64,000 bases of DNA from Gammaproteobacteria bacterium (GTDB lineage: Bacteria > Pseudomonadota > Gammaproteobacteria > Magnimaribacterales > AG-339-G14): NCBI GenBank assembly GCA_003331625.1, contig QOPF01000008.1:1702-65701 (forward strand). The letters are read 5' to 3'. Within the stretch, counting starts at the first letter, position 1, and every line of letters starts with the position of its first letter. Below, one piece after another: positions 1,691 to 35,564 of this stretch. A model generated the notes under the pieces. That model did not search any database. It was not told the origin of the DNA and saw nothing but the letters and a program-made list of their open reading frames with translations. The position numbers and the translations under genes were made by a program.

Positions 1691-2170
1691 TTAGAGGCTT
1701 TCGTTTTCCTTTTTTAGAGTTTCTTTTTGTTCATTTCTAAGGTTTTGTACCTTTTTTGCAAGCTCTTCGTTACCTGTTGATAACATTTGAGCTGCAAGAT
1801 AACCAGCATTTATGGCTCCTGCTTTACCAATAGCTACTGTAGCCACAGGTACACCCTTAGGCATTTGTACAGTTGATAACAATGCATCAAAACCATTTAA
1901 AGGACCTCCATCTCCTGGTACGCCTATAACCGGCAAGGTAGTTTTTGAGGCAATATTTCCGGCTAAATGAGCAGCTAAACCAGCAATTCCAATGAAGACT
2001 CTTACGCCATCTTCTATGGCCTCATCAATGTGTGCGTGAAGTAATTCTGGAGTTCTGTGTGCGCTTAAAATATTTATCGAATACTCTACTTGAAGTGTAT
2101 CTAAAATTTCACCCGCAGCTTTTGCTAAATCTAAATCTGACTTTGAACCCATTACAATTGAAACTTTCAT
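1691..2170 (-). CDS. purE: N5-carboxyaminoimidazole ribonucleotide mutase
   Basis: 159-aa ORF with MGSKSD and SAHRTP motifs and class I PurE length. Confidence 0.95.
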   Translation of the reverse strand: MKVSIVMGSKSDLDLAKAAGEILDTLQVEYSINILSAHRTPELLHAHIDEAIEDGVRVFIGIAGLAAHLAGNIASKTTLPVIGVPGDGGPLNGFDALLSTVQMPKGVPVATVAIGKAGAINAGYLAAQMLSTGNEELAKKVQNLRNEQKETLKKENESL

Positions 2171-2232
2171 TTTATATCTCCTTAACTAAAATGTTATTTT
2201 ACTGATATTGAAAATAATTTCGAATAAGAATT

Positions 2233-2730
2233 ATGGCTATAAGAAAAATTTTAAAGTTTCCAGATCAAGACCTCAGAACAAAAGCTGAAAATATTGCAGT
2301 ATTTGATGACGAGTTAAAAGTTCTAACTGATGATATGTTAGAGACTATGTATTCAGTAAACGGTATTGGGCTAGCCGCCACGCAAATCGGTATCCATAAA
2401 AGAGTAGCTGTTATAGATATTAGTCCTGAAAAAAATGAACCTCTCATAATTATTAATCCAGAAGTAGAAATTTTAGATGCAACAAAAAAAGAAGATTACG
2501 ATGAAGGGTGTCTGAGTGTTCCTGGTTTTTTTGAAACTATTTCAAGACCTTCAGAAATTAAATTAATTTATAAAAATCTTGAAGGAAGCCAAAAAGAAAT
2601 TAAACCCGAAGGATTGTTAACTAAAGTTATTCAACATGAGCTCGACCATCTTAATGGCAGATTGTTTGTGGACCATATTTCTCAACTTAAAAGAAGAAGA
2701 ATTAGAAATAAAATAGTTAAACAAAAATAA
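2233..2730 (+). CDS. def: peptide deformylase
   Basis: 165-aa ORF with GIGLAATQIG, EGCLSVPG and HELDHL metal-site motifs. Confidence 0.95.
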   Translation: MAIRKILKFPDQDLRTKAENIAVFDDELKVLTDDMLETMYSVNGIGLAATQIGIHKRVAVIDISPEKNEPLIIINPEVEILDATKKEDYDEGCLSVPGFFETISRPSEIKLIYKNLEGSQKEIKPEGLLTKVIQHELDHLNGRLFVDHISQLKRRRIRNKIVKQK

Positions 2731-3721: not shown

Positions 3722-5086
3722 TTGAATATTTTAATATTAGGTGCTGGCCAAGTTGGCTCTGAGTTAACGGAAATTCTTTCTGAAGATGGTCACAGCATAA
3801 CTCTTGTAGATTTAGATAAGGAAAAGCTAGAAAAGGAATCTGAACAGCTTGATATAAAAACAATTTGTGGAAACTGCTGTTATCCGCAAACTTTAGAAGA
3901 TGCAAATATTCAGGATACGGAATTAGCGATCGCAATGACTGCATGGGATGAAGTAAATTTAGTTGCTTGTCAAATGATAAAACACTTAAATAAAAAAACT
4001 CGAACCATGGCCAGGATTAGAGCTAGAGAATACCTAAAAGGTAAGGGAAGTAAAATTTTTGAAAACGGCGAATACTCTGTAGATGTTTTGATTTCCCCAG
4101 AAACTCTTATCACCGAATACATATCAAAATTAGTTCAGTTACCAGGTGCTCTTCAGGTCTTAGATTTTGGAAATGGGACAGCTTCTATGGTTAGTGTGAA
4201 AGCTGTCAGTGGTGCTCCGATAACCGGTCATAAAGTTTCAGAGCTTAGAGAACATATTCCTAAAGCAGATACAAGAGTCGCTGCGATTTATAGAGAAGAA
4301 GAAATAATAATACCTAGCGGTGCTGATTTTATAAGAGATGGGGATGAGGTTTTCTTCATCTCAGCAAAAGCCAACATAAAAAAAGTAATGTCAGAAATTA
4401 GACCGCGTGATTCAAAATATAAAAATATTATGATTGCTGGTGGAGGAAAAATAGGAAGAAGGCTCGCCAAGTTATTGGAAGATAAATTTAGCGTAGTAAA
4501 GATTATAGAAAAAAGTAGAAAAAGAGGAGACTATTTATCCGAGAATCTAAACTCAACTTTAGTGTTAAATGGAGATGCCACAGATCAAGATTTTCTCATA
4601 GAAGAGGGCATAGATTCTGTTGATATGTTTTGTTCCGTAACTGATAGTGACGAAGCAAACGTAATGTCATCATTATTAGCGAAAAAATTAGGTGCGAAAA
4701 AGGTACTATCTCTTATGAACAAACAATCTTTTCTAGACCTAATTCATCAAGGTGAAGTTGATATAACGGTCATTCCTAATGAAATAACAGTGGGAGTTGT
4801 TCTTAAAAACATTACAAAAGCAAAAATTGAAAGAGCTCATACATTTAAAAGGGGTAAATCTGAGGCTGTTGAGTTGATTGCCAACCCTGAAACTACTTCA
4901 AATATAATCGGCAAAGAAATAGACGATATAAAGCTGCCAAATGGCTGTACAATTAGTGCAGTAATACGGGGAAAAGAAGTCAAAATTGCCCATCATGATG
5001 TTAAAATTCATGAAAATGATCATATAATAATATTTTTATCCGATAAAAAATTGTTTCCAGCACTAGAAACAAGTTTAATGAATTAA
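3722..5086 (+). CDS. trkA: Trk potassium uptake system NAD-binding subunit TrkA
   Basis: 454-aa ORF with a TTG start. Two Rossmann loops (GAGQVGS, GGGKIGRRL) sit in tandem TrkA-N/TrkA-C halves. Confidence 0.9.
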   Translation: MNILILGAGQVGSELTEILSEDGHSITLVDLDKEKLEKESEQLDIKTICGNCCYPQTLEDANIQDTELAIAMTAWDEVNLVACQMIKHLNKKTRTMARIRAREYLKGKGSKIFENGEYSVDVLISPETLITEYISKLVQLPGALQVLDFGNGTASMVSVKAVSGAPITGHKVSELREHIPKADTRVAAIYREEEIIIPSGADFIRDGDEVFFISAKANIKKVMSEIRPRDSKYKNIMIAGGGKIGRRLAKLLEDKFSVVKIIEKSRKRGDYLSENLNSTLVLNGDATDQDFLIEEGIDSVDMFCSVTDSDEANVMSSLLAKKLGAKKVLSLMNKQSFLDLIHQGEVDITVIPNEITVGVVLKNITKAKIERAHTFKRGKSEAVELIANPETTSNIIGKEIDDIKLPNGCTISAVIRGKEVKIAHHDVKIHENDHIIIFLSDKKLFPALETSLMN

Positions 5087-29768: not shown

Positions 29769-31115
29769 ATGAAAATTGATGCAATAATTTTAGCCGCTGG
29801 CAAAGGCACCAGAATGAATTCTGCGTTGCCAAAAGTACTCAATAACCTAGCAGGAAAACCACTTTTACAGCATTTACTCGATACCACAAAAGAACTGAGT
29901 AACTGTAAACATCATTTGGTAGTAGGGAATCAACAGGCGCTCGTTAAAAGCTCTGTAAAAACTTCTAAAAATTCTATTTGGGTTTCGCAGTCTAAACAAT
30001 TGGGTACTGGTCATGCAGTTAAACAAACTTTAAAGAATTTACGACCAAACTCCACCGCACTAATTCTCTACGGCGATGTCCCGCTGATAACCAGCAAGAC
30101 AATGAAAAGCTTGATTAATGCGGCTGGGTCTAAAAATTTAGCTTTACTTACTTTTGAGCCACCAAAAGCTAAAGGTTACGGCAGAATTCTTAGAGACTCC
30201 AAAGGAAAAGTCATTGGCATTATCGAAGAGAAAGACGCCACTTCTAAGCAAAAAGCAATCACAGAAGTAAATTCAGGCATCATGGCAATTTCCTCCAACA
30301 ACCTAAAACCACTTATTACAAATCTTAAAAATAAAAATGCAGCCAAAGAGTATTATTTAACAGACATCGTGGAGCTTGCTACGAAGAACCAAATGCTTGT
30401 TAAAAGTGTCAAACCTTCATCCATAGAGGAAGTTTTGGGGGCAAATAATTTGGAAGAGTTAAATACATTAGAGCGCAGCTACCATGTCATGAAAGCCACG
30501 GAGCTGTCGAAGAATGGCGTCAGCTTTAATGATATCAACAGAGTAGACTTTAGAGGTGATATTAAAATACACAAGGGAACAACGATTGATATCAACTGTA
30601 TATTTGAAGGAGCGGTAGAAATCGCTAAAAATTCTAAGATAGGCCCAGGCGTTATCATAAGAAATTCTAAGATAGGAGAGGGAGTCAAAATCGAGGCCTA
30701 TACTCTTATAGAAAATGCTGTGTTAGAAAAAAATGTCTCGGCCGGACCATTCGCTCATATTGGTCCAGAAGCAGTCTTGGCTGAAAATTCAGAAATCGGG
30801 AATTTTGTAGAAATTAAAAGAAGCAAGATCGGCAAAGGCACGAAAGCAAAACATCTGGCTTACATCGGCGATGGGAATGTTGATGAAGGGGTAAACATTG
30901 GCGCTGGAACTATATTTGTAAATTATGACGGCAAGAACAAAAACAAAACCAGCGTAGGAAAAGGAGCTTTTATTGGCTCAAACAGCTCTTTAATTGCACC
31001 TATAAGAATAGGACACAACAGCATGATAGGAGCTGGTTCAGTGGTTACCAAGGATGTGCCTGCTCAGAAATTGGCTTTAGCTAGGTCACGACAGAAAAAT
31101 ATTAGGAAAAAATAA
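29769..31115 (+). CDS. glmU: bifunctional UDP-N-acetylglucosamine pyrophosphorylase / glucosamine-1-phosphate N-acetyltransferase
   Basis: 448-aa ORF with the N-terminal LAAGKGTRM motif and C-terminal hexapeptide (left-handed beta-helix) repeats. Confidence 0.95.
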   Translation: MKIDAIILAAGKGTRMNSALPKVLNNLAGKPLLQHLLDTTKELSNCKHHLVVGNQQALVKSSVKTSKNSIWVSQSKQLGTGHAVKQTLKNLRPNSTALILYGDVPLITSKTMKSLINAAGSKNLALLTFEPPKAKGYGRILRDSKGKVIGIIEEKDATSKQKAITEVNSGIMAISSNNLKPLITNLKNKNAAKEYYLTDIVELATKNQMLVKSVKPSSIEEVLGANNLEELNTLERSYHVMKATELSKNGVSFNDINRVDFRGDIKIHKGTTIDINCIFEGAVEIAKNSKIGPGVIIRNSKIGEGVKIEAYTLIENAVLEKNVSAGPFAHIGPEAVLAENSEIGNFVEIKRSKIGKGTKAKHLAYIGDGNVDEGVNIGAGTIFVNYDGKNKNKTSVGKGAFIGSNSSLIAPIRIGHNSMIGAGSVVTKDVPAQKLALARSRQKNIRKK

Positions 31116-32941
31116 TGTGCGGAATAATTGCAGCGGCAACTGAAAAAAGCGTAGGCAAGCTCCTAGTTCAAGGCTTATACAAAATGGAATATCGTGGCTA
31201 TGATTCTGCCGGCGTAGCTTTGCATCAAGTAAAAGATATTGCGCATCTTAGATCTCTGGGAAAAGTAGAAAAGCTTGAAAGCAAAATGAAGAAACAAAAG
31301 CCAAGAGGAAAAATAGGTATTGCTCATACGAGATGGGCAACTCATGGCAAGCCTTCGGAAGAAAACGCTCATCCCCACGTTTCCAAAGACAGAGTGTTTA
31401 TTGTCCACAACGGGATCATTGAAAACTACATTGAGCTTAAAGAGCAACTTTCAAAAAAAGGTTACGTGTTTGTCTCTCAAACCGATTCGGAGCTTATTGC
31501 ACATCAACTTGATTTTTTTCTAAGTCAAAAACACAACATGTTTGAAGCTATGTCTTTGTTGAAGAAAAAATTACAAGGAGCTTTTGCTATCGCTGCAATC
31601 GATCAAAGCGATGATTCACATTTCTACTTAATGAGAAATAAATCACCATTGCTTTTGGGTATTTCAGAGGAAGGAATGTTTGCTGCTTCTGACCCGCTTG
31701 CTTTGGTGGACATCACCAATGAATTTGTTTTTCTTGAAGACGGCGATGTCGTCGAGGCATCTGCCAGTGAATATAAAATTTTTGATGAAAACGAAAAAAG
31801 AGCCATCCGAAAGATTACCAAGTTGAATATTTCTAGCGAAGCCATGAGCAAAAATGGTTATCGACATTTTATGGAAAAAGAAATCTATGAGCAGCCAACA
31901 GCAATTTTAAATACTTTGGATGGCAGAATAGGCGGCGAAGATGTTTTAGAAAATATATTTGGGGAAGGTTCAAATGATTTGTTAAGCAACGTTGAAAGAA
32001 TTCAAATTGTAGCAGCTGGAACCAGTCTTCATGCAGGAAGGGTTGCTGCTAATTGGTTCTCAGCTATTGCCCAAATACCTACTCAAATAGACTATGCGAG
32101 CGAGTACCGTTATAAAAACCCTTACGTAGACAAAAACACTTTGTTTCTAACAATTTCTCAGTCGGGCGAAACAGCAGATACTTTAGGCGCCTTGCATTAT
32201 GCCAAAGAAAGAGACTACTTAGGCTCTCTAACAATTTGCAACGTACCCACTAGTTCCTTGGCAAGGGAATCAGATTTTATGTTGCTAACCAATGCTGGTC
32301 CTGAGATTGGCGTGGCCTCCACCAAAGCTTTTACGACACAGCTAGCCGCCTTGATGTTGTTAGCCTTATCGCTGGCAAAGGCCAGAAATTTAAATCCTAA
32401 ACTAAGGACCCGAGTTGTATCTGCGCTGCGCTCTTTGCCAGAAATTATTTCTGAATCGTTAAATTTAAAACCCAAAATTATTCGCATAGCTAAGGAAGTT
32501 GCTAAAAAAGACAACGCTTTATTTTTAGGTCGAGGTATTTTTTATCCAATTGCACAAGAGGGCTCTTTAAAGCTTAAAGAAATTTCTTACATTCATGCTG
32601 AGGCATATCCTGCAGGAGAACTTAAACATGGACCCTTGGCGCTTATTGATAAAGACATGCCCGTTATCGCCTTGGCGCCAGAAAATGAATTAGCAGAAAA
32701 ACTTATTTCTAATCTAGAAGAAGTTAAAGCCAGAGGCGGGAAACTTTTCGTAATAGGTAACGCTGCAGGCAATATGACATTAAAACCAAAAAATTTAATA
32801 AACTTACCGGAGTGCGATTTCTTACTAACGCCAATTCTCTACACCATTCCTTTGCAAATTCTTTCCTACGAGGTCGCTTTATTAAGGGGAACCGATATTG
32901 ATCAACCAAGAAACTTAGCGAAGTCTGTCACTGTAGAGTAG
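31115..32941 (+). CDS. glmS: glutamine--fructose-6-phosphate aminotransferase
   Basis: 608-aa ORF with an N-terminal MCGI nucleophile, two SIS domains and a C-terminal AKSVTVE. It overlaps glmU by 1 nt. Confidence 0.97.
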   Translation: MCGIIAAATEKSVGKLLVQGLYKMEYRGYDSAGVALHQVKDIAHLRSLGKVEKLESKMKKQKPRGKIGIAHTRWATHGKPSEENAHPHVSKDRVFIVHNGIIENYIELKEQLSKKGYVFVSQTDSELIAHQLDFFLSQKHNMFEAMSLLKKKLQGAFAIAAIDQSDDSHFYLMRNKSPLLLGISEEGMFAASDPLALVDITNEFVFLEDGDVVEASASEYKIFDENEKRAIRKITKLNISSEAMSKNGYRHFMEKEIYEQPTAILNTLDGRIGGEDVLENIFGEGSNDLLSNVERIQIVAAGTSLHAGRVAANWFSAIAQIPTQIDYASEYRYKNPYVDKNTLFLTISQSGETADTLGALHYAKERDYLGSLTICNVPTSSLARESDFMLLTNAGPEIGVASTKAFTTQLAALMLLALSLAKARNLNPKLRTRVVSALRSLPEIISESLNLKPKIIRIAKEVAKKDNALFLGRGIFYPIAQEGSLKLKEISYIHAEAYPAGELKHGPLALIDKDMPVIALAPENELAEKLISNLEEVKARGGKLFVIGNAAGNMTLKPKNLINLPECDFLLTPILYTIPLQILSYEVALLRGTDIDQPRNLAKSVTVE

Positions 32942-32959
32942 TTTTGGGGGTAGGTGTTT
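32941..32959. repeat. left 19-bp terminal inverted repeat (IR-L), beginning with the last base of the glmS stop codon
   Basis: GTTTTGGGGGTAGGTGTTT is the exact reverse complement of 33737-33755. Confidence 0.95.
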
Positions 32960-33008
32960 TAACTGCTTATTTCTTTAATAAATTTTGTATTCGATTTATT
33001 ATTGATTG

Positions 33009-33728
33009 ATGAAATCAATAACAAGTCAATTACTAATAATTCTTTTATCTTCTTCTCTGATATCTTTTTCAGAAAATTTAAAGACTGATGAAAACTTTTC
33101 TAAAGGTCTTTCAAAAATCATTATTGCAAGAACTTGTAAGTTTCCTACCTCAGCATATACGATAAATTTTTATATAAATGACAACGAACAGTTAGCAAAA
33201 CTTAAATGCAATCTGCCTAAAAAACTACTTTCGTTTGAACATGAACTTAATCCTGGAGAACATAATTTAAAAATAAATTATTTAACTGGATTAGGTAAAA
33301 ACAGAAAAGTTTTAGTGGATTATCAGGGAAATAGTTGGGAAGCAGAAAAAAAGGTAAATTTATCTCAAGGTCAAACTAGATATTTCGTTGCAAGATGGTT
33401 TCAAGACCAAAGAAGCGGAGCAGGAAATGCTTTTGGACTTATAGGAGCAGCAATAGAGCAGGCAGTTGAAGGAGTTTCTAGAGAAGGATTGTTTTTTGAA
33501 GAACAAAGTGCAGATTGTGTAATTAAAAATAAAGGAAAAAATTGCTTACCTTTCGAAAAACCCCAAGTCATCTCTACGCCTATTCAAAATATAACAAAAG
33601 AAAATGTTATGGATAGCACAGCACTTTCTGTTGAAGAGCAATTAGTAAAATTAAAAAAATTATTCGATGCCGGTTTAATCTCTAAAGAAGTCTATGAGGC
33701 AAAACAAAAGGATTTATTAGGTTTGTGA
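33009..33728 (+). CDS. secreted protein with C-terminal SHOCT-like motif (cargo of the cassette)
   Basis: The track ORF starts at TTG 33006 and ATG 33009 is the likely start. It has a signal peptide (KSITSQLLIILLSSSLISFS), a beta-rich middle (PGEHNLKINY), a Gly/Ala hydrophobic stretch SGAGNAFGLIGAAIEQAV and a C-terminal EEQLVKLKKLFDAGLISKEVYEAKQKDLLGL resembling SHOCT. Confidence 0.6.
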   Translation: MKSITSQLLIILLSSSLISFSENLKTDENFSKGLSKIIIARTCKFPTSAYTINFYINDNEQLAKLKCNLPKKLLSFEHELNPGEHNLKINYLTGLGKNRKVLVDYQGNSWEAEKKVNLSQGQTRYFVARWFQDQRSGAGNAFGLIGAAIEQAVEGVSREGLFFEEQSADCVIKNKGKNCLPFEKPQVISTPIQNITKENVMDSTALSVEEQLVKLKKLFDAGLISKEVYEAKQKDLLGL

Positions 33729-33736
33729 ATTCTTAT

Positions 33737-33755
33737 AAACACCTACCCCCAAAAC
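33737..33755. repeat. right 19-bp terminal inverted repeat (IR-R)
   Basis: AAACACCTACCCCCAAAAC is the exact reverse complement of 32941-32959. Confidence 0.95.
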
Positions 33756-33776
33756 AAGTCAGTCACGGTGGAGTAA
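33756..33776 (+). repeat. relic second copy of the glmS 3' terminus (KSVTVE-stop)
   Basis: AAGTCAGTCACGGTGGAGTAA compared with the functional AAGTCTGTCACTGTAGAGTAG at 32921-32941. There are 4 differences, all at third codon positions or the stop (TAG vs TAA), so the encoded peptide is identical. Confidence 0.8.
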
Positions 33777-33902
33777 GTCAGAGTAGTGATCTAACATCAC
33801 TGCAAAAACATCAATAGATGTACTCTTTGAATTTAGCAATTCAATAATCTTTTTTCTTAATATTTAATTTCAAAATTCTTTTAGTTGATATAGGGTTAGA
33901 AT

Positions 33903-34085
33903 ATGAAAAAACTAACACTTTTAATACTCCTTACTGCTTTGGTTGGTTGTTCGAAATACAGTTCTTATGATGATTGTTATGAGAAAAATATGTCTAAGAT
34001 GGACGAAGATCTAAAGTTGGTAATACATGAACATGAAAATTTTATCTCTGCTGTTGAAGGTTTGTGTGAAGAATATAAAGACTAA
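33903..34085 (+). CDS. small putative lipoprotein
   Basis: 60-aa ORF with a signal peptide and lipobox (LLTALVGC), followed by an acidic Cys-containing mature part. Confidence 0.5.
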   Translation: MKKLTLLILLTALVGCSKYSSYDDCYEKNMSKMDEDLKLVIHEHENFISAVEGLCEEYKD

Positions 34086-34361
34086 TGAAAAACCTATTTT
34101 TCATAGTTTTATAAAAGTTTCCACAAAGGGTTACAGTGCGTCGTTCTAAGGCACCATTTTTTATTTTCTCAGCAATGGCAACCCCATCTTCGACACCTAA
34201 AGAATCATTCTGAAAAGCACTTACTAAACCTTCTAAATCCATTTTTCTCCCTTCTGTAAAACTGAATTCATATTACTATAAAGGTTTTTAATTATTAAAA
34301 GACGTTTAATAAGGAATAAAAAGAATTACAATAAATATAATAACTTTTTTAGAAATATCAC

Positions 34362-35564
34362 ATGGCAGAAAAAAAAGATAATAAAACGGCTGTTTCAGAG
34401 CTGCCCAAGGTAGATTGGCTTGATCGGGAGTCAGATCCATCAAAGTTTTTTAAAGATCTTTCTTATGCCTTATCAGAATTTGGATTCATGGTTTTAACCA
34501 ATGCTCCAGGCTTTTCTAATGATTTTCAACAAGAAGCTTTTCAAGAAGTTCGTGGTTTTTTTGACTCACCAAAAGAAACAAAGAAAACCGCATACATTGC
34601 CAAGACTCCATATTTTCGCGGCTATAGTTATCCAACTCCAGCTGATAGTGGCTTTGGACAGGTTATTGAAGCTTTTCAGTATGGTTTTGAGCAGGAACCA
34701 CTATGTCATCACGACGATAAAACACAGCCGATACACCGAAGACTTTTCCGCGGCCCCAATACTTGGCCAGACGCTAAATCTCTTCCAAGATTTCGACCTT
34801 TGATTGACGATTTGAATGGACGCTATCACCGTCTAACCCACTTACTTGGTGAGGCGATTGTGGAGTCTTTAGGAGAGGATATCTCAGCATTTCATGAGTA
34901 TTTTGATTTTGAAGATCCTGATTTGGCTGCGAGCCTTAATCACAACTTCAGCTTAGATGCTTTCGCAGAAAAAGATCGAGAAAAAGTCAAACAGGAGTAT
35001 AAAAAATTTGAAAGTCAGAGAGTTGGAGCTCACATTGATGGACCCCCTTTCATAGCCTTGCTCATAAACGACCGTCCGGGCTTGCAAGTAGTCGCGGCGG
35101 AAGGAGGATGGATTGATGCTCCAGTAACATGCCAAACAGCGCCTGGTAATTATGATGTGCCGGTAATTCCTGGCTCAGTTATAGTAAATACCGGCGGGAC
35201 GTTAATGCATCTAAGCGAAGGTCGTTATTCTGCAACTTTGCATCGAGTGAATACTACATTGATTCCAGAAGGCGAAACACGAGTTTCTATGCCTTATTTT
35301 CTTATACCTAAAATGGAAGGCGACTTGATACCTTTTGGAAAAGCTGAGGCTGAATCTCAAGGCGCTGCAGGCTATGAATCTGGGCGAGATCGAGGAGCAA
35401 ATGCAAGTGTAAACAGGATGGGAACTTTCCCACAGGTAACCAAACGTTGGTGGGTAGAAGAGTTTGCTGAATTAAGTCAAAAACATCGTGATGAAGTTAA
35501 AGCTGAAACACAAGCTGCATTAAAGCTCGCTAAAGAACGTGGCGAACGTTTTAAAGCTAACTAG
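34362..35564 (+). CDS. 2-oxoglutarate/Fe(II)-dependent oxygenase (isopenicillin-N-synthase-like family) with C-terminal extension
   Basis: 400-aa ORF with the facial triad H-x-D (GAHIDG) and distal His (ATLHRV), plus the RVSMPYF 2OG-binding Arg-x-Ser. It is visibly more GC-rich than its neighbours. Confidence 0.8.
   Translation: MAEKKDNKTAVSELPKVDWLDRESDPSKFFKDLSYALSEFGFMVLTNAPGFSNDFQQEAFQEVRGFFDSPKETKKTAYIAKTPYFRGYSYPTPADSGFGQVIEAFQYGFEQEPLCHHDDKTQPIHRRLFRGPNTWPDAKSLPRFRPLIDDLNGRYHRLTHLLGEAIVESLGEDISAFHEYFDFEDPDLAASLNHNFSLDAFAEKDREKVKQEYKKFESQRVGAHIDGPPFIALLINDRPGLQVVAAEGGWIDAPVTCQTAPGNYDVPVIPGSVIVNTGGTLMHLSEGRYSATLHRVNTTLIPEGETRVSMPYFLIPKMEGDLIPFGKAEAESQGAAGYESGRDRGANASVNRMGTFPQVTKRWWVEEFAELSQKHRDEVKAETQAALKLAKERGERFKAN

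Follow-up and report, generated by a model that had tools for sequence, protein, structure and literature searches.

How does a small gene cassette come to lie within the very end of a housekeeping gene, enclosed by inverted repeats and by two synonymous versions of that gene's last codons? The question is raised by a 64,000-nt stretch of the gammaproteobacterial contig QOPF01000008.1 (the whole stretch is called the window below), in which glmS is followed by an 815-bp unit and then by a second copy of the 21-nt glmS tail. The source of the window is SAR86. Pfam GATase and SIS domains are recorded on products identical to the window GlmS, which is 87–89% identical to the proteins of the closest SAR86 single-cell genomes and metagenome-assembled genomes (MAGs). 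From a comparison with related loci, we consider it likely that the 815-bp unit belongs, as a non-autonomous cassette, to a site-specific recombination system kept by SAR86 at the last seven glmS codons and driven by a large serine recombinase (LSR).

The window array runs from glmS through tail 1, cassette 1 (the 815-bp unit), tail 2 and cassette 2 to a truncated core gene, and both cassettes lack an LSR (Table 1). The features from which an initial annotation of the DNA had started were all recovered. Cassette 1 is bounded by an exact 19-bp inverted repeat (IR), which stretches to 24 nt at 22/24 and occurs in just two copies in the window at up to three mismatches, where 0.01 are expected by chance. 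Both tails encode KSVTVE-stop, and they are the only 21-mers in the window to do so (0.01 expected). The four sites at which they differ (tail positions 6, 12, 15 and 21) all fall in the stop codon or on the third base of a codon. Cassette 1 holds one substantial open reading frame (ORF), whose product weakly resembles SHOCT at its C-terminus (E = 3e-4, which does not reach the Pfam cut-off), and neither a motif search nor phmmer with an LSR query found a serine recombinase in cassette 1 or elsewhere in the window. A protein identical to the cassette 1 cargo is encoded on 11 contigs, and the cassette is not an assembly artefact, because it is present with identical junctions in at least 10 independent marine-metagenome contigs. 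Tara/GEOTRACES data sets, SRR1539645 and ERR599092 among them, contain the population of the window. The IR 19-mer had no matches in viral contigs.

Table 1. The glmS array of the window and its distal edge (positions are those of the window).
Feature	Position	Strand	Sequence	Description
glmS	31115–32941	+		608 aa; target gene; final 21 nt are the recombination core; translation ends KSVTVE
Tail 1	32921–32941	+	AAGTCTGTCACTGTAGAGTAG	glmS-proximal junction (attL-type)
Tail 1, left half (positions 1–11)	32921–32931			glmS-derived; ends in central AC, 32930–32931
Tail 1, right half (positions 12–21)	32932–32941		TGTAGAGTAG	cassette-derived
Cassette 1	32942–33755
Left arm (IR-L), cassette 1	32941–32959	+	GTTTTGGGGGTAGGTGTTT	outer part of P′ half-site; 19/19 reverse complement of 33737–33755
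Cassette 1 cargo ORF	33009–33728	+		239 aa; signal-peptide-like N-terminus; co-oriented with glmS
Right arm (IR-R), cassette 1	33737–33755	+		outer part of P half-site
Tail 2	33756–33776	+	AAGTCAGTCACGGTGGAGTAA	cassette 1/cassette 2 junction
Tail 2, left half	33756–33766		AAGTCAGTCAC	belongs to cassette 1
Tail 2, right half	33767–33776		GGTGGAGTAA	belongs to cassette 2
Cassette 2	33777–34138	+		truncated at distal end; right arm and third tail missing
Cassette 2 left arm	33777–33792		GTCAGAGTAGTGATCT	overlaps hairpin 33783–33803
Cassette 2 ORF	33903–34085			60 aa; lipoprotein-like
Core-gene 5′ remnant (amidase-like by eye)	34139–34295	−		fused to truncated cassette 2; distal array edge
2OG-Fe(II) oxygenase gene	34362–35564	+		Pfam DIOX_N, 2OG-FeII_Oxy; first intact core gene past array

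Arrays of this kind are the rule at the SAR86 glmS locus. In a census of 66 SAR86 glmS loci (compared loci and contigs carry L-numbers; some metagenomic contigs, such as L113 at its end, may be chimeric), 56 had at least one cassette downstream of the gene, in arrays of one to nine cassettes with a direct copy of the glmS tail core between neighbours. When tail sites were defined in a relaxed way, as TCN GTN ACN GTN GAR TAR, the plus strand held 171 of them in 490 kb downstream of glmS and 10 in 637 kb upstream, with 15 on the minus strand anywhere in about 1.13 Mb (both flanks); extrapolation from the upstream rate indicates that this definition lets in about eight false sites among the 171. 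A strict search of related glmS loci returned two to three direct KSVTVE-stop tails downstream in eleven other genomes. The spacing from tail to tail is mostly 150–2800 nt, and downstream tails often begin with TAC or CAC, not AAR, giving a 6-8-6 palindromic core, TACTCC-GTNACNGT-GGAGTA. The glmS reading frame was preserved in every array examined; in the window, glmS ends in KSVTVE-stop by way of tail 1. IR-bounded units with different cargo, which the initial annotation had suggested looking for, occur in large numbers. Surveyed for its 25 commonest Pfam families, their cargo was found to include nuclease systems (restriction systems among them), enzymes, and proteins that are secreted or lie in the membrane; 132 cassettes are oriented with glmS against 18 in the opposite direction. 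Empty arrays were also found. In L017 the ATG of the oxygenase gene (the counterpart of window 34362) lies 32 nt after the glmS stop, and the empty arrays L016 and L086 have a distal flank in common with the occupied arrays L013, L049 and L070.

Each cassette carries an arm of about 17 nt after its tail and the reverse complement of that arm (arm′) just ahead of the next tail. The arms are cassette-specific and covary; a consensus can be written (RTTYRAAYRGWGAWTT), with bases that are variable and fall into many families. Arms pair (score of 10 or more) across the cargo at 65 of 171 sites and across the tail at 6 of 171, which rules out an intact palindrome at every junction. Clearly matched arms occur in only about half of the cassettes; among the 85 well-matched ones, arm positions 5–15 are 88–93% complementary, where base composition predicts about 40%. 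The commonest arm register is +1, found in 104 of 166 cassettes; with it, the dyad axis falls between tail positions 10 and 11, the invariant A10-C11 with which the Thr codon begins. In circular form, a cassette would have a palindrome of about 55 bp, composed of arm′, the 21-nt tail and the arm, and centred on AC. For cassette 1 the predicted circular junction is AAACACCTACCCCCAAAAC-AAGTCAGTCAC/TGTAGAGTAG-TTTTGGGGGTAGGTGTTT, with AAACACCTACCCCCAAAAC AAGTCAGTCACTGTAGAGTAG TTTTGGGGGTAGGTGTTT as the full site. Two other candidate structures were rejected. A third, internally deleted tail (AAGTC/AGAGTAG, 33775–33786) proved to be part of an arm family, AGAGTAGTGAT, that also occurs in L073, L083 and L034, and by eye the sites bear no resemblance to integron attC core motifs or Xer/dif-like sites.

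The point of recombination within the tail was mapped with 51 homologous cassette pairs whose members stand at different places in an array or in different genomes. Positions 1–9 of the downstream tail are linked to the cassette, with 0.22–0.35 differences per position against 0.66–0.74 in random pairs, and positions 12 and 15 vary as much as in random pairs. In the upstream tail the pattern is mirrored, the right half being linked to the cassette, though only in part at positions 12 and 15. Single loci show the same exchange of halves. In L101, the right end of an L047-type element is joined to its left end by one tail, TAGTCCGTTAC/AGTGGAGTAA, that consists of the left half of the L047 distal tail and the right half of the L047 proximal tail. 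L002 and L115 have one small cassette and the right half-tail GGTGGAATAG in common, and their left halves differ. L002 encodes a GlmS protein identical to that of the window and keeps the left half-tail AAGTCTGTCAC; its right half differs along with its cassette. From these comparisons we infer that crossover takes place at the central, non-palindromic AC dinucleotide, positions 10–11 of the tail (window 32930–32931 and 33765–33766), because of which both window tails would be hybrids. Serine recombinases make a 2-bp crossover and tyrosine recombinases use an overlap of 6–8 bp; an exchange confined between positions 9 and 12 therefore fits the former and not the latter.

These results recast part of what had been concluded from the window by itself. 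An insertion into the glmS 3′ end that brings a replacement gene end stands as first proposed; its placement exactly at the stop codon gives way to a crossover at the central AC. The purely synonymous divergence of the tails had been taken to imply two glmS alleles, which is not required. One source of the pattern is that the right half must code for T-V-E-stop when its cassette is first in the array. The other is that left halves that do not code vary freely at the same wobble positions, to which the recombinase seems indifferent.

Cassette 2 offers a view of the same junction in several settings. It recurs at 97–99.5% identity in L111, L112, L113 and L115, making five contexts with the window. 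In those four loci it is complete, with its own arm′ and tail, and ends in ...aattctctgttttgttc/AAGTCAGTCAC...; the homology stops at window 34138. No partner for its left arm was found in the window, which lacks this partner and a third tail because its copy of cassette 2 is truncated. What precedes the cassette differs: cassette 1 in the window (junction tail AAGTCAGTCAC/GGTGGAGTAA), a glmS allele 66% identical to the window's in L113 and L111 (AAATCAGTCAC/GGTGGAGTAA), a DUF6632 cassette in L112 (AACTCCGTAAC/GGTGGAGTAA) and another cassette in L115 (AAGTCAGTCAC/GGTGGAGTAA). The right half-tail is constant in 5/5 contexts, and the left half varies with the context. Since glmS directly precedes cassette 2 in L113 and L111, with the right half-tail unchanged, these two loci are empty sites for cassette 1. 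The initial annotation had predicted such empty-site alleles, which do exist (...AAATCAGTCACGGTGGAGTAA/GTCAGAGTAGTGATC), one base off the exact sequence it had written. On a window-type glmS the empty site is predicted to be AAGTCTGTCACGGTGGAGTAAGTCAGAGTAGTGATC, and excision of cassette 1 would leave AAGTCTGTCAC/GGTGGAGTAA. In L113 and L111 a cassette 2 of 99% identity follows a glmS of only 66% identity, which is evidence of recent transfer between divergent lineages. The hairpin at 33783–33803 (GTAGTGAT-CTAAC-ATCACTGC, seven Watson-Crick pairs and one T.G pair) is present as described; it is not an ancestral post-glmS structure, as had been suggested, but belongs to the left arm region of this mobile cassette.

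The arms and small cassettes show some further regularities. The window arm family also borders unrelated cargo in L073, L049 and L048, and in L048 an arm identical to the cassette 1 IR-R stands before a tail at 4212. The unrelated cargo of cassettes in this family begins with similar residues, MK[SN][IL]S..LLI (window 33009–33060; L073:13293–13340; L049:10770–10820), and the 5′ leaders of the L073 and L049 cassettes are also similar; it looks as if arm, leader and signal-peptide start form a shared module. In the AGTAGTGAT arm family (window 33786–33800; L073:9836–9852; L034:12603–12619) a small hairpin, GTGAT-N5-ATCAC, regularly follows the arm, and in another family (GTTTAnnCGnCTTTC...TTTTAATCC) the arm is followed by a terminator-like CCCGCATTCTGCGGGG. 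A cassette of about 122 nt (L002:7828–7949; L115:504–625), near-identical in two contexts of which one is the first array position behind a window-type glmS (L002), contains a 15-codon mini-ORF, MCDCCNCCECSCCSK, that is extremely cysteine-rich and metallothionein-like in appearance.

A recombinase that could act in trans had been named as something to look for, and a candidate was found. Our scan for recombinase motifs covered all loci and the window, and it returned exactly one serine recombinase, in L047: an LSR of 551 aa with Resolvase, Recombinase and Zn_ribbon_recom domains. It is encoded at the distal end of a 6-kb element that has matched arms and is enclosed by the glmS tail and the one after it. 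Its relatives in metagenomes and the protein database are 35–97% identical, and in 20/20 loci with enough 3′ flank the LSR gene is followed, 25–65 nt on, by arm′ and a tail. The LSR elements (6–9 kb) begin directly at the glmS tail in L047, L097, L103 and L106, the glmS gene itself being visible upstream in L103 and L106, and autonomous relatives of the cassettes that encode an LSR comprise these four loci and L117. LSR lineages have different arm families, two of which (TTTGGGTGGGGTAAGA and AATTTGGTTATG) also occur commonly on cassettes that lack an LSR. In L117:1–16130, two related LSR elements lie in tandem with a period of 7143 nt and 71% positional identity between copies, and the tandem junctions are perfectly palindromic (tttgggtggggtaagaa/CAATCCGTTACAGTGGAGTAG/tcttaccccacccaaa). 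Outside SAR86, LSRs of 35–37% identity, including one from Pseudidiomarina, are also followed by a tail, TACTC...AC.NGTNGARTAA. The solved structures closest to the LSR are those of SPbeta SprA/YokA (the best PDB match, E = 1.7e-12), the TP901-1 integrase and the phiC31 integrase; relatives of the LSR were not found in viral contigs. The LSR gene adjoins the site, and its product would be the enzyme that catalyses integration and excision.

Two features of the LSR elements deserve mention in their own right. In Pseudidiomarina taiwanensis (L120:11679–13582), the distal tail of the LSR element, TACTCCAAAACAGTGGAATAA, is followed 2 nt later by an apparent Tn7-like end, which begins TGTAGTGG, continues with four repeats of aggaataaagtcggtgac and leads into tnsA and tnsB; at this locus, two kinds of element that target glmS lie one behind the other. 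LSR elements also have in common a REP_ORF2-G2P-like gene (L047:10272–10733; L103:3049–3579; L106:5863–6324; L117:2256–2732), related to rolling-circle replication initiators, which suggests that the excised LSR element replicates as a small circle.

We propose the following mechanism. A circular cassette would carry arm′-tail-arm, and the LSR would exchange strands at AC between this palindrome and the glmS tail. After integration, glmS would retain its own left half-tail and acquire the right half-tail of the cassette, which encodes T-V-E-stop, and the former glmS right half-tail would end up on the far side of the cassette. The site regenerated next to glmS would consist of a glmS half joined to an element-type half and, as in the staphylococcal cassette chromosome (SCC), would be re-usable; more cassettes could therefore enter at the same place and the array could grow. 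The LSR would be supplied by the 6–9 kb autonomous elements that use the same site, and the small cassettes would depend on this supply in trans. The cargo, co-oriented with glmS, is probably expressed by read-through, which is plausible because of the strong bias in orientation and because no terminator-like site was found between glmS and the cassette 1 ORF.

Several observations weigh against this proposal. The window contains no LSR, and an LSR lies within 8 kb of glmS in only 1 of the 66 SAR86 genome loci. Among the recovered LSRs, no lineage has the window arm family (GGGGGTAGGTGTTT; GGGKGTAGGTGTTT arms). Cassette 1 itself was met in one context only. The link between cassette and upstream tail is incomplete at positions 12 and 15, where the differences are 0.47 and 0.43, compared with 0.69 and 0.65 in random pairs. 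Compared with the half-sites of characterised LSRs, the arms vary far more and their symmetry is closer to perfect, which leaves room for structure-based recognition or for another enzyme. A tyrosine-recombinase signature was found in none of the loci and not in the window, in a search by motif regex of limited sensitivity. The support comes from sequence comparison.

Some of these points would also suit an immobile relic, the alternative that survives best and that we nonetheless consider unlikely. Cassette 1 would have come by the same recombination, perhaps within a larger LSR element later reduced by internal deletion, and its perfect IR would just be young. The single context of cassette 1 and the lack of a cognate LSR for its arm family are what this would predict; the distal end of cassette 2 is already deleted in the window, and arm families are common to LSR-less cassettes and LSR elements. 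However, LSR-less cassettes as a class move as units, the 51 homologous pairs obeying the half-tail rule, and cassette 2 is nearly unchanged across widely diverged glmS backgrounds. In cassette 1 itself, the arms and both flanking cores are intact, and its arm family flanks unrelated cargo elsewhere. We retain a mobile, LSR-dependent cassette as the favoured explanation; cassette 1 itself may have lost its mobility.

An integron-like process is less probable still. Here a tyrosine recombinase, or another structure-recognising enzyme, would act on a folded single-stranded hairpin of arm′-tail-arm, as IntI does on attC. The cassettes are of integron size, mostly single-gene and co-oriented, the arms covary without strict sequence conservation, and the predicted circular junction of cassette 1 would form a strong hairpin as single-stranded DNA (−21.9 kcal/mol, z = −8). 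On the other side, the motif search gave no sign of a tyrosine recombinase, the arms are by eye unlike the core sites RYYYAAC/GTTRRRY, and integration splits the palindrome in the middle and not at one end. The switch in linkage between positions 9 and 12 permits an exchange region of about 2 bp only, and it is LSR genes that adjoin the site in all 20 loci where this could be seen.

Homologous recombination is a poor candidate. In this scenario glmS would anchor a replacement genomic island, and the 21-bp tails would provide the micro-homology for its shuffling. The region is indeed hypervariable among strains with identical GlmS, and its distal boundaries differ, deletions included. Crossovers should then spread along the tail, whereas the switch is confined to positions 9–12; the matched cassette-specific arms are left unexplained, as is a cassette of 99% identity in a genome whose glmS is 66% identical. 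The arrangement, terminal inverted repeats plus a flanking direct repeat, would suit a MITE-like DDE transposon whose target-site duplication has decayed, but this reading has next to nothing else in its favour, as the 21-bp repeats are not identical and their halves segregate with different partners, all insertions share one site and one orientation, the IR is found at the glmS locus only, and no transposase was found. Equally negligible is a conserved long-range RNA helix between the two IRs of a glmS read-through transcript. The two arms do covary, but their mismatches are mostly transversions (101/182) with no excess of G.U-compatible ones (34 on the plus strand against 47 for the minus strand), an Rfam search of 32500–34500 returned nothing, and the arms travel with cassettes and have their symmetry axis at the mapped DNA crossover.

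At the distal edge of the window array, the remnant fused to cassette 2 has a full-length homologue, in the same orientation and adjoining the oxygenase gene, in L015 and L070. An ORF of 66 aa, 34042–34242 on the minus strand, runs across the 34138/34139 junction between the two. The end of contig L113 (L113:1479–1663) is the reverse complement of window 34295–34111 at 97% identity and finishes with the inverted last 25 nt or so of cassette 2; either the inversion is genuine, or an inverted repeat gave rise to a chimera during metagenome assembly. In L005:1380–2968, a cassette 2 variant is followed not by the oxygenase region but by a tmRNA gene (2084–2427, minus strand) and a purL-like ORF. 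The surroundings differ from those of the window, and the same cassettes therefore sit in a genome of another arrangement.

SAR86 ranks with the most abundant bacteria of the surface ocean; its genomes are small, and how it acquires accessory genes is poorly understood. The glmS arrays would be a defined and widespread route of gene gain and exchange in this group. We give even chances to a broader reading, in which they form a gene-capture platform in SAR86 and some other marine Gammaproteobacteria that would do the job of an integron with different parts: an LSR, a fixed site in the stop-codon region of glmS, promoterless single-gene cassettes with a palindromic site of about 55 bp and lineage- or cassette-specific arms, expression by read-through, and exchange between lineages with glmS genes a third diverged. 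To our knowledge, glmS is conserved in essentially all bacteria, and serine integrases that target its end, seemingly indifferent to wobble, could for that reason provide a broad-host-range landing site comparable to attTn7. In the literature that could be searched, which is incomplete, we found neither cassette arrays at glmS nor LSRs with the end of glmS as their target described.

Several known systems share part of this design. Like Tn7, the arrays use the conserved glmS 3′ end as a safe landing site. Recognition by TnsD of Tn7 appears to tolerate wobble positions, and so does cassette recognition. Unlike the cassettes, Tn7 transposes downstream of the stop codon, and its TGT...ACA ends, 5-bp duplication and tnsABCD genes are all absent here, no tns genes having been found among the neighbours, in line with the initial view that the element is not Tn7-like. 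Integrons resemble the glmS arrays in their one-sided rows of small, mostly single-gene, co-oriented, recombinase-less cassettes beside a fixed site, and in cassette sites that are imperfect palindromes of variable sequence and retained symmetry. They differ in that no tyrosine recombinase (by regex) and no attC core motifs were found here, a coding gene provides the fixed site with its end, and the palindrome is cut at its centre within a 2-bp exchange region, leaving its arms on opposite sides of the cargo. The tycheposons of Prochlorococcus are likewise elements of marine streamlined genomes, with tandem cargo arrays and partial attachment sites, but they rely mostly on tyrosine recombinases (910/937) and tRNA genes; the paper that describes them does not mention glmS or SAR86 (bioRxiv 10.1101/2020.12.28.424599).

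The closest known system is the staphylococcal cassette chromosome, SCC or SCCmec, with its recombinases CcrAB and CcrC, including ccr-less elements; the initial annotation could not name the class of the 815-bp unit, which is best placed as a recombinase-less member of an LSR cassette system. SCC elements use an LSR to insert into the 3′ end of a conserved housekeeping gene with its frame preserved, have direct repeats that include the integration site as well as terminal inverted repeats, exchange strands at a central dinucleotide between half-sites, and occur in tandem or composite arrays and as recombinase-less elements (PMC3780952; bioRxiv 10.64898/2026.03.31.715619). Of their four half-sites, three resemble the element and the remaining one overlaps the reading frame of the gene (bioRxiv 10.64898/2026.03.31.715619). 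The glmS arrays show the same organisation, half-sites included, with the LSR as the probable enzyme and AC as the dinucleotide mapped by comparison. The window cassette encodes no LSR and is thus classed only as a non-autonomous, ccr-less-like unit. The systems otherwise differ in target (glmS, not rlmH), in host (SAR86, with LSR relatives in other Gammaproteobacteria, not staphylococci) and in central dinucleotide (AC, not GA). The glmS units are mostly single-gene cassettes of 0.15–2.8 kb in arrays of up to nine, in contrast to islands of 20–60 kb, and their arms are near-perfect and highly diverse. The glmS LSR is only distantly related to characterised LSRs. The glmS arrays would represent an SCC-type mechanism beyond the staphylococci, operating at the scale of an integron.

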